Shown: positions 1,098 through 5,144, counted from the stretch's first letter. The stretch is DNA of 10,049 bases from a virus (IMGVR_UViG_2690316311_000018), one strand, 5' to 3'. Notes: generated by a model not told the origin, from the sequence alone. A program made the numbers and translations.

Positions 1098-1126
1098 TTG
1101 ACTTATTGAATAAAGTTGGGTAAATT
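1098..1126 (+). promoter_or_regulatory. Late promoter pR' (-35 TTGACT, 17-bp spacer, -10 TAAATT); the Q-utilisation (qut) site is expected to overlap it
   Basis: TTGACT at 1098-1103 and TAAATT at 1121-1126 with a 17-bp spacer, directly downstream of Q as in lambda. Predicted transcription start near 1133. Confidence 0.75.
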
Positions 1127-1132
1127 TGACCC

Positions 1133-1327
1133 AACGATGGGTTAATTCGCTCGTTGTGGTATTGAGATAAAAAGAGGCGGCGCTTACTACCGATTCCGCC
1201 CAGTTGGTCACTTCGACGTATCGTCTGGAACTCCAACCATCGCAGGCTGAGAGGTCTGCAAAATGCAATCCCGAAACAGTTCGCAGGTAATAGTTAGAGC
1301 CTGCATAACGGTTTCGGGATTTTTTAT
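1133..1327 (+). ncRNA. Short constitutive late leader transcript (lambda 6S RNA equivalent), pR' start to tR'
   Basis: Distance from the predicted start (~1133) to the end of the tR' U-tract (~1327) is ~194 nt, the length of lambda 6S RNA. No credible ORF inside. The 5' end is inferred, not observed. Confidence 0.6.
1268..1327 (+). terminator. Rho-independent terminator tR'
   Basis: Perfect 10-bp stem ATCCCGAAAC (1268-1277) / GTTTCGGGAT (1311-1320) enclosing an internal GCAGG/CCTGC sub-stem, followed by TTTTTTAT (1321-1328). Confidence 0.8.
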
Positions 1328-1335
1328 ATCTGTGT

Positions 1336-1602
1336 AACAGGTAAGAGCATTCTCCCTTATGGGGCTTGGCTTAAATGCACCGAGTGCTCTTATCGTTGTG
1401 GCAGCACAACGATAGTTTTCGTCAGAGTTGGCGACTTTGCGGTTTTTTAGAAACTGACCACAAAGATAAATGCAAACGATGATGTTGTTCTGATGGCGGC
1501 GTAATAGCCTGTAAGTCAGCAAGGTCTTCCGACTCCTTGTAAACAAATTCGGCGCACTGGCCCGGTGTGATTAATAATGGGCACACAACAGGTAAGAGCA
1601 TT
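1336..1602 (+). repeat. Exact 16-bp direct repeat AACAGGTAAGAGCATT (1336-1351 and 1587-1602) bounding a ~235-bp segment; each copy has a downstream inverted partner GAGTGCTCTT (1382-1391; 1671-1680)
   Basis: Read directly from the sequence. The repeats are 251 bp apart start to start. Each copy can pair with its partner as a ~10-bp long-range stem. Confidence 0.7.
1391..1414 (+). repeat. Perfect 10-bp palindrome / hairpin TATCGTTGTG-GCAG-CACAACGATA
   Basis: Arms at 1391-1400 and 1405-1414 are exact reverse complements with a 4-nt loop, followed by GTTTTCG. Lies inside the segment bounded by the direct repeats. Confidence 0.6.
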
Positions 1603-1830
1603 AAAGAACTGGCAAAGAGCTTAACGGTCTGCGAAAGCATTTCTTAGTGGCACAACTGGCCGGTACAACTGAGTGCTCTTTCCGGTGTGGTGAATGCGCA
1701 GGCTGATGCGCGCAGGAGAGCTTCGGAAGAACAAGGTGCCTGTATACAAGCCGGAGATCAGCGCCGGCCACCACAGCCAAATCCACCCAGAGCAAAACCG
1801 TTGTTCATCCTTACCATTCACTCAGTATTT

Positions 1831-1856
1831 TGGGCTACACCATCAGCCCATTTTTT
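1831..1856 (+). terminator. Candidate rho-independent terminator, + strand
   Basis: Stem TGGGCT (1831-1836) / AGCCCA (1845-1850), 8-nt loop, then TTTTTT (1851-1856). Confidence 0.5.
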
Positions 1857-1940
1857 AAAGCGTACTTCCACCAAGAACCAGACCTAACCAACTCATTGCT
1901 GACACTCTGTGGATACGGTTGTCTAGTACGCTTTAAAAAA
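1851..1940. repeat. Perfect 15-bp inverted repeat TTTTTTAAAGCGTAC (1851-1865) / GTACGCTTTAAAAAA (1926-1940) with a 60-bp spacer
   Basis: Read directly. The two arms supply the U-tracts of the two convergent terminator candidates. Confidence 0.7.
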
Positions 1941-1964
1941 GAAAACCCAGCATCAATGGCTGGG
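1933..1964 (-). terminator. Candidate rho-independent terminator, - strand, convergent with the one at 1831-1856
   Basis: Stem CCCAGC (1946-1951) / GCTGGG (1959-1964) with a 7-nt loop. On the - strand the hairpin is followed by TTTTCTTTTTT (complement of 1935-1945). Confidence 0.45.
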
Positions 1965-2127
1965 CTTCGTGATATGAGCGGCATGTATTGTTGGCGCAAT
2001 CCACGCCTGATTTGCTCATGAATGCGGTCACGAACAAACCCGTTACAAATCAACCGTAACCCGGATTTGTTCAAGCGACCATATCCATAATTCCTAATTT
2101 GAACAGATCCCCTTCTGGGGGTAAGAC

Positions 2128-2451
2128 ATGAAGATGCCAGAAAAACATGACCTGTTAGCCGCTATTCTCGCGGCAAAGGAACAAGGCATCGGGGCAATCC
2201 TTGCGTTTGCAATGGCGTACCTTCGCGGCAGATATAATGGCGGTGCGTTTACAAAAACAGTAATCGACGCAACGATGTGTGCCATTATCGCCTGGTTCAT
2301 TCGTGACCTTCTCGACTTCGCCGGACTAAGTAGCAATCTCGCTTATATAACGAGCGTGTTCATCGGCTACATCGGTACTGACTCGATTGGTTCGCTTATC
2401 AAACGCTTCGCTGCTAAAAAAGCCGGAGTAGAAGATGGTGGAAATCAATAA
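2128..2451 (+). CDS. S: Holin S (lambda S-type class I holin), 107 aa, with dual-start motif Met1-Lys2-Met3
   Basis: ATG AAG ATG at 2128-2136. Product [22 protein letters not shown]... with three hydrophobic segments and a charged C-terminus, recalled as near-identical to lambda S. Upstream GGGGGTAAGAC at 2117-2127. Confidence 0.92.
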
Positions 2452-2911
2452 TCAACGCAAGGCGTTCCTCGATATGCTGGCGTGGTCAGAGGGAACAGAT
2501 AATGGACGGCAGAAAACCAGAAATCATGGTTATGACGTCATTGTTGGCGGAGAGCTATTCACTGATTACTCCGATCATCCTCGCAAACTTGTCACGCTAA
2601 ACCCAAAACTCAAATCAACAGCCGCCGGACGTTACCAGCTTCTTTCCCGTTGGTGGGATGCCTATCGTAAGCAGCTTGGCCTGAAAGACTTCTCTCCCAA
2701 AAGCCAGGACGCTGTTGCGCTGCAGCAGATTAAAGAGCGTGGCGCTTTGCCGATGATTGATCGCGGTGATATTCGTCAGGCAATCGACCGTTGCAGCAAT
2801 ATCTGGGCTTCACTGCCGGGCGCTGGTTATGGTCAGTTCGAGCATAAGGCTGACAGCCTGATTGCAAAATTCAAAGAAGCGGGCGGAACGGTCAGAGAGA
2901 TTGAGGTATGA
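2435..2911 (+). CDS. R: Endolysin R (lambda R-type lytic transglycosylase), 158 aa
   Basis: ATG at 2435 overlaps the end of S. GGAG at 2423-2426. Product [24 protein letters not shown]..., recalled as near-identical to lambda R. Confidence 0.92.
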
Positions 2912-3345
2912 GCAGAGTCACCGCGATTATCTCCGCTCTGGTTATCTGCATCATCGTCTGCCTGTCATGGGCTGTTAATCATTACCGTGATAACGCCATG
3001 ACCTACAAAGAGCAGCGCGATAAAGCCACATCCATCATCGCTGATATGCAGAAGCGTCAACGTGATGTAGCAGAACTCGACGCCAGATACACAAAGGAGC
3101 TTGCTGATGCTAACGCTACTATCGAAAGCCTTCGTGCTGATGTTTCTGCTGGTCGTAAGCGCCTGCAAGTCGCCGCCACCTGTGCAAAGTCAACGACCGG
3201 AGCCAGCAGCATGGGCGATGGAGAAAGCCCAAGACTTACAGCAGATGCTGAACTCAATTATTACCGTCTCCGAAGTGGAATCGACAGGATAACCGCGCAG
3301 GTTAACTACCTGCAGGAGTACATCAGGACTCAGTGCCTGAAATAA
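2908..3345 (+). CDS. Rz: Spanin inner-membrane subunit Rz (i-spanin), 145 aa; lambda-like N-terminus, divergent periplasmic domain
   Basis: ATGA overlap with the R stop (2908-2911). N-terminal transmembrane segment [20 protein letters not shown], then a charged, likely coiled-coil region. The first ~30 aa match lambda Rz as I recall it; the remainder does not. Confidence 0.85.
3107..3292 (+). CDS. Rz1: Spanin outer-membrane lipoprotein subunit Rz1 (o-spanin), 61 aa, embedded in the +1 frame inside Rz
   Basis: ATG at 3107 with AAGGAG at 3094-3099 (7-nt spacing). Product [33 protein letters not shown]...: signal peptide with a V-S-A-C lipobox and a proline-rich mature part. The ORF track begins this frame two codons earlier at TTG 3101. 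Confidence 0.8.
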
Positions 3346-4352: not shown

Positions 4353-4724
4353 ATGAACGACCAGCAAATCGAAAAAGAAATCGTTGAGAAAGGCAAAACG
4401 GCACCGCGAGTTACGCCAGACCATATCGAAGGAATTATTGCTCAGGAGGCATATTTCACAGCAGAGGATGGTGCCTTTGGCAAAGCCATAAAAGCGAAAC
4501 ATACTGGCGGAGAGGTAAACTACCAGTCGCACGAATCACTTTCTCTGCTGACGTTCTGCGTCCTGGTGCTGCGCAACGGCTTCACCGTCACCGGAGAGAG
4601 TGCCTGTGCAAGTCAGGAAAATTTTGATGCAGAAATTGGTCGGAAGATTGCCCGGCAGAATGCTGTAAACAAAATCTGGATGCTCGAAGGTTACTTGCTG
4701 AAGCAGAAGCTAAGCGAACAGTAG
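4353..4724 (+). CDS. Small phage protein, Gp49-like (N4 gp49 / Sf6 gp66 family), function unknown
   Basis: 123-aa ORF with AGGG 9 nt upstream. Family assignment is from memory of proteins found between lysis and terminase genes in P22/Sf6-like phages; not verified. Confidence 0.55.
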   Translation: MNDQQIEKEIVEKGKTAPRVTPDHIEGIIAQEAYFTAEDGAFGKAIKAKHTGGEVNYQSHESLSLLTFCVLVLRNGFTVTGESACASQENFDAEIGRKIARQNAVNKIWMLEGYLLKQKLSEQ

Positions 4725-4827
4725 TTATTACAAAAGCCATTCCTTACTGAGTGGCTTTGATAATGGCTTATACCCTACACGGGATAACTTAACTGATATC
4801 CCTTTTAACGGATAAACGGAGCCAACA

Positions 4828-5070
4828 ATGGCAGAGATTATTCCCATGACTGAAGAACAGAAATTCCAGTTAGAGATTTACAAACTGGTCATGAACCAGA
4901 ACGCAGCCGCGGAGGAAGCATTTCAGTTCATTGGCACTGACGAGCTGAAGCTTGAGCTATTCAAAATTCACTTCCAGTCAGGTGGCGCTAATTCAGATAT
5001 CACGACCCGCACAATCGAAGCGGTGCGTAAATCGAAGGAAGCGTTAGACCTGTTCACTACCGGAGCGTAA
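4828..5070 (+). CDS. Hypothetical small acidic phage protein, 80 aa
   Basis: ATG at 4828 with GGAG at 4816-4819. Same orientation and tight spacing as the neighbouring genes. No family recognised. Confidence 0.55.
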   Translation: MAEIIPMTEEQKFQLEIYKLVMNQNAAAEEAFQFIGTDELKLELFKIHFQSGGANSDITTRTIEAVRKSKEALDLFTTGA

Positions 5071-5072
5071 AC

Positions 5073-5144
5073 ATGGCAACTCAAGGTTTCGACAACCCAT
5101 CCAAATTCCGCGATGAATGGGATAAGCAAGCAGAAGGGAAATAA
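5073..5144 (+). CDS. Possible 23-aa leader micro-ORF (MATQGFDNPSKFRDEWDKQAEGK) immediately upstream of the small terminase gene
   Basis: ATG at 5073 with GGAG at 5062-5065 (7-nt spacing). Starts 2 nt after the previous stop and ends 5 nt before the terS start. Too short to judge by composition. Confidence 0.25.
   Translation: MATQGFDNPSKFRDEWDKQAEGK

Follow-up and report, generated by a model that had tools for sequence, protein, structure and literature searches.

The window, by which we mean the whole stretch of 10,049 nucleotides analysed here, represents the part of an HK620-like lambdoid prophage devoted to late regulation and lysis, with Q, pR', tR', S, R, and Rz. Positions 1056-1351 share 97% identity with lambda, in a segment that runs from the end of Q across pR' and the 6S RNA to tR', whose hairpin (-25.5 kcal/mol) is followed by TTTTTT. 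The leader between Q and S measures 1,073 nt. About 530 nt past the lambda-type tR', it contains a compact unit built around an inverted repeat (Table 1). A consensus scan of positions 1000-2500 returned seven terminator-like sites, compared to 1.6 expected.

Table 1. Features of the late leader and the lysis region, in window coordinates
Feature	Position	Strand	Evidence and remarks
pR' late promoter, TTGACT-17-TAAATT	1098-1126	+	promoter scan; 97% identical to lambda pR'/6S region; annotated in HK620
lambda-type tR' (6S RNA terminator), first late terminator	1268-1326	+	lambda identity; hairpin
direct repeat D2, left copy TCCACCCAGAGCAAAACC	1782-1799		partner at 1867-1884, within the SL1 loop
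hairpin 1 + U6, candidate intrinsic terminator (HK620 'tQ')	1831-1856	+	scan, HK620 annotation; lineage-specific
SL1 5' arm	1851-1866	+	U6 (1851-1856) doubles as terminator U-tract; AAAGCGUACU is the conserved core arm
SL1 loop, 5' part	1867-1906	+	C/A-rich, G-poor single strand with conserved CCAA...CCAGAC motifs
inner hairpin motif CUGUGGAUACGG, consensus CUGUGGCUACGG	1907-1918	+	RNAalifold and pair counts
SL1 3' arm, AGUACGCUUU plus A6	1925-1940	+	inverted-repeat search, pair counts
A-rich linker AAAAAAGAAAA; on the - strand U-tract UUUUCUUUUUU of the hairpin 2 terminator	1935-1945		scan
hairpin 2, CCCAGC-AUCAAUG-GCUGGG	1946-1964		- strand intrinsic terminator candidate reading 1968-1934
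CTTCGTGA, right boundary of the module	1965-1972	+	lineages diverge downstream of it
S	2128-2451	+	lysis gene
R	2435-2911	+	lysis gene
Rz	2908-3345	+	lysis gene

The initial annotation had described this unit (1831-1964) as two facing terminator candidates on a perfect 15-bp inverted repeat ahead of the lysis genes. The description was accurate: both hairpins are terminator-like in the consensus scan, S begins downstream of the unit, and the repeat is present, its length being in fact 16 bp. Hairpin 1 (1831-1850) pairs TGGGCT with AGCCCA, with four G-C pairs among the six, closes an 8-nt loop, and runs directly into TTTTTT. It has an energy of -8.5 kcal/mol and sits downstream of pR' on the same strand. 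The same 27 nt are annotated in HK620 as 'late transcription terminator; tQ' (GenBank AF335538, 16241-16267), and the two sequences are 98% identical across 231 nt around the unit. Hairpin 1 together with T6 is therefore not new as a + strand terminator, and it makes a credible candidate for an intrinsic terminator in the late leader. Because the lambda-type tR' is located 530 nt upstream, it would be a second, back-up terminator. The suggestion that a + strand terminator tightens the dependence of lysis on Q fits both the tQ annotation and this position behind tR'. With 6 bp and an 8-nt loop, hairpin 1 is modest as a terminator.

The fusion of a terminator to the inverted repeat is restricted to some lineages. 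Four unrelated hairpins, with stems TGGGCT, GCCAGC, GCCCG, and CTCAC and energies from -8.4 to -12.4 kcal/mol, directly abut T6 (the latter three types in SI8/L025, L080, and L094). In other lineages the terminator lies 8-20 nt upstream of SL1, the stem-loop formed by the repeat, and is unfused. The U6 of the window aligns with a conserved UUUCUG of other lineages. In P22- and HK97-type phages the base of the stem combines UUUCUG with CAAAAG and includes a C-A mismatch. The window, the SI8 group, L080, and L094 have UUUUUU instead, which faces AAAAAA in all of them except L094. The change from UUUCUG to UUUUUU thus provides both a longer helix and a terminator U-tract, and the locus illustrates a way in which an already existing RNA helix can acquire a fused terminator.

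The inverted repeat and its relatives in other phages

The repeat consists of TTTTTTAAAGCGTACT (1851-1866) and AGTACGCTTTAAAAAA (1925-1940), two arms of 16 nt that are 100% complementary and separated by a spacer of 58 nt. No other perfect inverted repeat of the 10-kb window with arms up to 150 nt apart is as long, and the repeat also exceeds the longest one found in any of 60 dinucleotide-preserving shuffles of the window (9-13 nt). The 151-nt unit around the repeat has a folding z of -4.3 relative to shuffles on the + strand, and in the + strand fold the 16 perfect pairs of the SL1 stem are prolonged by a 5-bp extension (UCCAC/GUGGA).

BLAST searches reach well beyond the immediate relatives of HK620. 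The stretch from the left arm to just beyond hairpin 2 matches P22-like Salmonella phages at 72-83% identity. A search starting from epsilon34 returned 106 phage records, and the reverse search also links the window element with epsilon34. Phages carrying the element include P22, epsilon34, ES18, HK97, HK022, mEp235, HK140, Sf101, Emek, Gally, and Pantoea PA-1. About 60 distinct metagenomic variants were obtained by a pattern scan of viral contigs, with AAAGAAAACC as part of the pattern, and alignment A1 holds 63 sequences, many of them closely related. Both BLAST and the alignment, which extends throughout the element, indicate that the window element is homologous to that of P22.

The order of parts is shared among these phages. 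A terminator, abutting or 8-20 nt upstream, is followed by an often present GCACGAC, by UUUCUG, and by a left arm starting with AAAGC. Then come a C/A-rich loop of 53-56 nt with CCAA and CCAGAC, which contains the inner hairpin CUGUGGCUACGG, and the right arm. The module ends with the linker AAAAGAAAA, hairpin 2, and CUUCGUGA, past which the lineages diverge again; at the other edge, the homology to SI8 begins precisely at 1851. The SL1 arms vary in length between 10 and 16 bp. Over the 63 variants the 5' part of the loop has a mean composition of 36% C, 7% G, 41% A, and 16% U, and its sequence diverges. The linker AAAAGAAAA is nearly invariant in A1, which is partly forced by AAAGAAAACC in the search pattern; the phages found by BLAST likewise keep an A-run at this position. 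In most lineages CTTCGTGA can pair with a CACGR upstream of SL1, a 5' partner that the window lacks; this boundary helix is 91% paired in A1, with one-sided changes only. The relatives also carry the module downstream of the late terminator(s) and ahead of the holin gene.

For the window, the covariance model that we derived from A1 gives a score of 114.5 bits; as its training rows include the window itself plus one identical sequence, this value is not independent evidence of homology. Searches of the curated Rfam families returned only sub-threshold, chance-level matches for the window and nothing for the P22, HK97, SI8, and PA-1 versions. One of these matches, isrJ (- strand, 1942-2016), was rejected: it scores 16 bits against a gathering score of 37, and its alignment consists mostly of the terminator hairpin. 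IsrJ itself has the same sense as the isrK-orf45-anrP transcript of Gifsy-1, with antQ upstream. A protein-coding reading was likewise discarded, as no reading frame is open throughout the variants and the element lengths (115-128 nt) do not differ in steps of three. Phage records annotate conflicting hypothetical ORFs here, on either strand (epsilon34 gp63, SI8 QEI23186, Sf101_0056, HK140 gp64, MG40_063). Lambda gives no covariance-model match on either strand and has no hairpin 2; it shares with the window only the short colinear words ATCACCAA, TTTTACACA, and CTTCGTGAA and an inverted 18-mer.

One E. coli strain, 47-1826, carries a prophage without hairpin 1 and the left arm. The missing segment corresponds to window positions 1800-1866, precisely between the two copies of D2, and its absence lowers the covariance-model score from 114 to 58 bits. 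The loss arose via recombination between the direct repeats at 1782-1799 and 1867-1884. The module is therefore dispensable, at least for prophage carriage.

Covariation, strand, and a small RNA of P22

Alignment A1 allowed us to ask how the arms of SL1 have changed. The core helix comprises ten pairs, seven of which have changed on both sides, and 89.6% of its cells are paired over the 63 sequences. The arm variants AAAGCGUACU (window), AAAGCGCCCUAUC (P22), AAAGCACAUC (HK97), AAAUCGCUCU (Pantoea PA-1), AAAAUGCCCU, and UUAGCGCUUAUC all still pair with their partners. For the whole structure 86.4% of the cells are paired, compared to 40-47% if the partners are slid by one to three columns. None of 500 shuffles reached the observed value for three of the five whole-structure measures, the covariation score among them, and 21 of 500 reached the observed count of further standard pair types. 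RNAalifold, run unguided, independently recovered the same SL1 helix. The helix of the inner hairpin (columns 105-109/114-118) is 93.6% paired.

Folding energy proved uninformative as a criterion for the strand on which SL1 acts. The - strand complement of the SL1 segment folds better (mean -28.8 kcal/mol) than the + strand (-22.4 kcal/mol) because the complement of a C/A-rich loop is rich in G and U, so that energy cannot decide the strand. We therefore counted G-U against A-C appositions instead. On the + strand the SL1 core has 58 G-U and 17 A-C cells, and the inner hairpin 111 and 2, respectively; since many of the 63 sequences are close relatives, such cell counts overstate the number of independent events, which we estimate by eye at about eight wobbles against two to three A-C. 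The wobble pairs favour the + strand, that of the late mRNA, as the one on which the predicted helix forms. At the level of the alignment, these comparisons show that compensatory substitutions keep the predicted SL1 helix intact, as do G-U wobbles, which exist as pairs only on the + strand. HK620 and most relatives carry AGUGCGC in the 3' arm, which results in a U-G wobble where the window has a U-A pair. The perfection of the repeat is thus a peculiarity of the window's sub-lineage.

The P22 version of the element coincides with an RNA detected in infected cells. A small-RNA survey of P22-infected Salmonella lists P22E, a + strand RNA of 101 nt at P22 positions 19,716-19,816 (PMC13397905 Table 2, 2026), with 2,582 RPM in cells and 1,883 RPM in vesicles. 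The survey covered lytic infection only, and ten loci account for 99.8% of its phage reads. It reports P22E by read abundance alone and gives no conserved structure, family, or function (PMC13397905). P22E is identical to the P22 sequence; it begins at the second U of UUUCUG, covers SL1 and the A-rich linker, and ends in the hairpin 2 loop. The equivalent stretch of the window is approximately 1852-1953. By our mapping P22E ends 180 nt before the start of gene 13, compared to the 48 bp stated in the survey, which may misplace P22E relative to this gene (PMC13397905). The 3' end of P22E lies within the hairpin 2 loop, which leaves the true ends of the RNA uncertain. P22E comes from a single survey and could also arise as a very abundant late transcript decays, in which case it would not be a functional RNA.

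Covariation and the homology to P22E both argue for a conserved RNA structure on the + strand whose basal helix is formed by the inverted repeat, a role beyond scaffolding for two terminators. By this comparison we assign the repeat of the window to a P22E-type family of late-leader RNAs that has so far been neither curated nor analysed. In its picture of the unit, the initial annotation correctly placed the + strand terminator and overlooked this role of the repeat; its alternative of a miniature inverted-repeat insertion fails, as discussed below.

Weighing the alternatives

Hairpin 2 also resembles a terminator, on the opposite strand. Read leftward, positions 1968-1942 form ten pairs including G-U, with a 6-bp core of CCCAGC/GCTGGG, and are followed by CTTTTTTAAA; the arms GAAGCCCAGC...GCTGGGTTTT lead into CTTTTTT. 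The energy is -9.0 kcal/mol for the core and -13.8 kcal/mol for the extended hairpin. The scan likewise calls hairpin 2 a - strand terminator in HK97 and P22, and two of its pairs covary in A1. It could be asked whether hairpin 2 ends a dedicated leftward sRNA similar to PasA and PasC, which would start between hairpin 2 and S or in the S initiation region and act in trans via Hfq or in cis on the S leader. A - strand hairpin 2 with a UUUUCUUUU tail is found in every lineage. In 52 of 56 variants the - strand fold gains 2.5-3 kcal/mol over the + strand fold, because an A-C at its base on the + strand becomes a G-U on the - strand, as it does in 113 cells. There is also a precedent in other lambdoid prophages, which makes the idea plausible: PasA and PasC of EPEC are validated, Hfq-dependent RNAs transcribed leftward between the upstream gene and the holin, and they end in a hairpin and U-tract (PMC8550237). 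The genuine PasA promoter scores only 6.9 in our lenient scan, so weak-looking promoters can function. Against this, in none of the three sequences examined by the consensus scan (the window, HK97, and P22) does a sigma-70-like - strand promoter lie to the right of hairpin 2. The best candidate in the window reaches 5.2 in the lenient weighted scan, compared to 14.8 for pR', and the candidates are not conserved in position or sequence across lineages. No - strand RNA from this region is among the ten loci of the P22 survey, which covered lytic infection (PMC13397905). The PasA/PasC loci have no sequence similarity to the window, and hairpin 2 is entirely missing from lambda. With no convincing leftward promoter found, the earlier idea of an antisense RNA over the S initiation region is unsupported, and we regard a dedicated leftward sRNA as unlikely.

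Rho loading, RNase III processing, and a role at the DNA level are weaker rivals. The SL1 loop could be a rut site, with the leader serving as a Rho-dependent attenuator of polymerase that has escaped tR' and being overridden by Q-modified polymerase. The C-rich, G-poor composition of the 5' part of the loop persists over the 63 variants despite sequence divergence, C exceeds G across approximately 1756-1895 in the window, and in most lineages the module directly follows the late terminator(s). Canonical rut sites, however, are longer and unstructured, whereas a stable stem encloses this C-rich stretch of just about 40 nt. The accumulation of P22E neither requires nor suggests Rho, and we find this explanation quite improbable. 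An RNase III site that separates the leader from the late mRNA would be cut within a stem of about two turns of double-stranded RNA; in the window, the stem has 16 + 5 bp. Daniels and co-workers reportedly described RNase III processing of lambda late RNA in 1988. But lambda, where sites were mapped, has no match to the module, the HK97-type stem is only about 10 bp long, and P22E keeps both arms of SL1, which means that the stem is uncleaved in the abundant species. RNase III processing at SL1 thus appears very improbable. A DNA element, be it a MITE, an insertion scar, or a recombination or inversion site, could account for the terminal inverted repeats, for the mosaic unit with sharp homology edges such as the start of the SI8 similarity at 1851, for the loop motif GACAGACAGTGGCTACGG that lambda has on the opposite strand, and for the natural deletion mediated by direct repeats in strain 47-1826. 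The copy search does not bear this out. Among 5,426 complete E. coli genomes 97 carry the unit, in one copy each and always on the chromosome, and all three places that we opened lie between the antiterminator gene Q and a lambda-family holin. No target-site duplication is present in the flanks, neither around 1831-1964 (CAGTATTT/CTTCGTGA) nor around 1851-1940 (AGCCCA/GAAAAC). Finally, the compensatory changes and the bias of G-U over A-C imply selection on RNA and not on duplex DNA. A DNA-level role is therefore extremely improbable, and the repeat should not be labelled a mobile element in annotations.

A model of the leader RNA and comparison with known systems

We consider it probable, with confidence somewhat above an even balance, that the unit at 1831-1972 is the lineage-specific version of a conserved, non-coding structured RNA that opens the lysis leader and acts on the late-mRNA strand. 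Holin expression sets the time at which an infected cell dies, and pR' fires constantly in a lysogen, so that leakage past tR' is dangerous. Polymerase without Q that leaks through tR' would be stopped at hairpin 1 and U6, a fail-safe that would keep S, R, and Rz silent in the lysogen. Q-modified polymerase would pass, and U6 would then pair with the downstream A6. The read-through transcript is predicted to fold as three abutting helices, namely hairpin 1, SL1, and hairpin 2. This compact domain may resist nucleases. Cleavage in the A/U-rich single strands on either side would probably release it, and it would persist as an RNA of about 100-125 nt from the leader, comparable to P22E. The function of the domain would likely reside in the exposed CA-rich loop, which could contact a protein (Hfq or Rho, for example) or a target RNA. 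The - strand terminator in hairpin 2 could most simply be a safety stop for stray leftward transcription, with no dedicated gene behind it. Termination and read-through folding in this model are based on sequence and annotation; the persistence of the RNA and the function of its loop we infer. A more elaborate version would be a two-strand riboregulatory module, in which a P22E-type RNA, whose loop binds Hfq, Rho, or a host target, tunes holin leak and timing, and a PasA-like leftward sRNA is ended by hairpin 2; the A/U tract common to both strands would then be an (ARN)n site in one RNA and supply the U-tail of the other. We think this combination improbable.

If the structured-RNA reading holds, the module is a candidate control point of lysis, placed right after the late terminator in P22, HK97, HK022, HK620, and many prophages of pathogenic E. 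coli and Salmonella, and it may likewise give rise to a phage small RNA. No Rfam family exists for the element, and its sole published trace is the P22E read-abundance entry of 2026. The alignment, the covariation, and the covariance model turn it into a testable family definition.

Several known systems share individual features with the window. The late leader of lambda contains Q-sensitive intrinsic terminators between pR' and S, as the window does. Tandem terminators in this leader are said to have been described by Luk and Szybalski in 1983. The window has the lambda-type tR' itself, at 97% identity, plus hairpin 1 as an additional terminator that is unrelated in sequence to lambda tR'; lambda, for its part, has no covariance-model match to the module of SL1 and hairpin 2. 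MITE, REP, and ERIC elements are short units bounded by inverted repeats, too, but the unit of the window differs from them by its single copy, its fixed context, the lack of a target duplication, and its RNA-type covariation. PasA and PasC (EcOnc51/52) of EPEC are arranged as '> < >' upstream of the holin (PMC8550237 Table S6). As in the window, the late-operon strand of these EPEC and EHEC lambdoid prophages has an A-run and then a hairpin just upstream of the holin, an arrangement that reads leftward as an intrinsic terminator. PasA, however, combines a mapped transcript with a correctly spaced TTGACA -35 box, whereas the window has neither. Membership in the PasA/PasC family was rejected, as BLAST gave no match between the window leader and the PasA locus and the covariance model gave none at the PasA and PasC loci.

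The closest counterparts are HK620 tQ and P22E. The tQ terminator comprises the same 27 nt at the same place as hairpin 1. Its annotation covers hairpin 1 and T6 and is silent on the upstream tR', the long-range stem, hairpin 2, and their conservation; HK620 also carries the wobble in place of the perfect U-A pair. P22E and the corresponding element of the window share homologous sequence and structure in A1, and both lie on the late-operon strand, after the late terminator and upstream of the holin. They differ at the start of the stem and in its arms. In P22, tR' lies about 20 nt upstream of the stem and is unfused, the base of the stem is the mismatched UUUCUG/CAAAAG, and the core arms are AAAGCGCCCUAUC; in the window, the base is U6/A6 and the core arms are different. 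What distinguishes the copy in the window is that its terminator is fused to a perfected stem.

A tmRNA-message-like sequence in the late leader

Part of the leader between Q and S looks like a tmRNA message domain; it includes the stretch GCAAACGATGATGTTGTTCTGATGGCGGCGTAA, which is preceded by UAAAU and translates as ANDDVVLMAA followed by a stop codon, compared to ANDENYALAA for the SsrA tag of E. coli. The corresponding Rfam scores were sub-threshold both for tmRNA_permuted (26.3 bits) and for beta_tmRNA (17.2 bits), and ARAGORN found no tRNA-like domain at this element. Homologues are present in 759 phage records from unrelated groups. A 10-codon frame of the AN(D/E)xxxLxxA type is kept, with synonymous changes, in all five aligned sequences. 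Four phage records were examined for genomic setting: the homologue lacks an annotation in all of them and is adjoined by tRNA genes in three, while no tRNA gene was found within 700 nt of the homologue in Kuttervirus ECML-4. Our literature search found no paper on this element.

Features of the leader and their counterparts in other phages
Feature	Location	Strand	Sequence or remark
tmRNA message-domain-like sequence	window 1411-1583, core 1463-1558	+	UAAAU then GCAAACGATGATGTTGTTCTGATGGCGGCGTAA
tmRNA-message-like homologue	Felixounavirus tRNA cluster		beside tRNA genes
tmRNA-message-like homologue	P1 ban leader		beside tRNA genes
tmRNA-message-like homologue	Klebsiella phage MK54		beside tRNA genes
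Lambda-type long stem-loop, two copies in leader	window 1330-1415 and 1580-1700		ACAACAGGTAAGAGCATT ... GAGTGCTCTT.CG.TGTG
SL1 loop motifs, fused	lambda L138 1153-1170	-	GACAGACAGTGGCTACGG; opposite strand

Modular organization of the leader

The long stem-loop occurring twice in the leader has its lambda counterpart after the late terminator tR' (L138 ~985-1070), and in Klebsiella phage MK54 this structure is located upstream of the tRNA genes. Short GCACRAC / GTYGTGC motifs appear to mark the junctions between leader modules; lambda carries three motifs of this type, for which alternative pairings could be formed. Past hairpin 2, the minus-strand terminator-like hairpin of the window, lambda/HK97-type leaders contain an additional plus-strand terminator-like hairpin (GGCAGGAGGT...ACCTCCTGCC GTTTTG), which is annotated as a terminator in the record of phage MG40. 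Where HK97, lambda and MG40 have this extra hairpin, the sequence of the window (1965-2127) differs. Downstream of tR', each lineage seems to maintain one or more further terminator-like hairpins.

Variants and traces of the SL1/hairpin 2 module

The prophage of E. coli 47-1826 (L142 1990-2010 vs window 1782-1884) represents a natural loss of hairpin 1 together with the left arm of SL1, the conserved late-leader stem-loop. This deletion falls between the copies of the direct repeat D2; the prophage carries a different Q type upstream of the module and a mismatch in hairpin 2. Contig L032 contains two covariance-model matches (4662-4826 and 4971-5082) about 150 nt apart, the second being a minimal form with a 7-nt loop in place of the large one. 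In Salmonella phage 29485 (L016 947-1465), an HNH homing endonuclease gene starts ~10 nt past the CTTCGTGA boundary of the module.

Lambda retains short colinear words of the module on its plus strand (ATCACCAA, TTTTACACA and CTTCGTGAA) as well as the arm-like sequences AAATGCGTAC / AGTTACGC. The fused loop motif on its opposite strand could be due either to chance or to an ancient inversion of the segment between the arms. A similar fused motif, GACAGACAGTGACGG, is found on the plus strand of the promoter region of PasA, a leftward Hfq-dependent sRNA of EPEC lambdoid prophages.

RNA-like matches in related leaders

Salmonella phage SI8 harbors a degenerate tRNA-like sequence (L002 1359-1428) that is located downstream of the late terminator and upstream of hairpin 1. 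It scored 23.9 bits with the Rfam tRNA model, which is below threshold, and would fit with tRNA morons having decayed at this position of the leader. The Rfam isrJ model gave a full-length match in HK97 (L006 724-794, plus strand) with 28 bits, relative to a gathering score of 37. The matching segment is the short transcript that HK97/P22-type phages make from pR' to tR' and, judged from this sequence similarity, IsrJ of Gifsy-1 may be a relative of their 6S-like pR'-to-tR' RNA.
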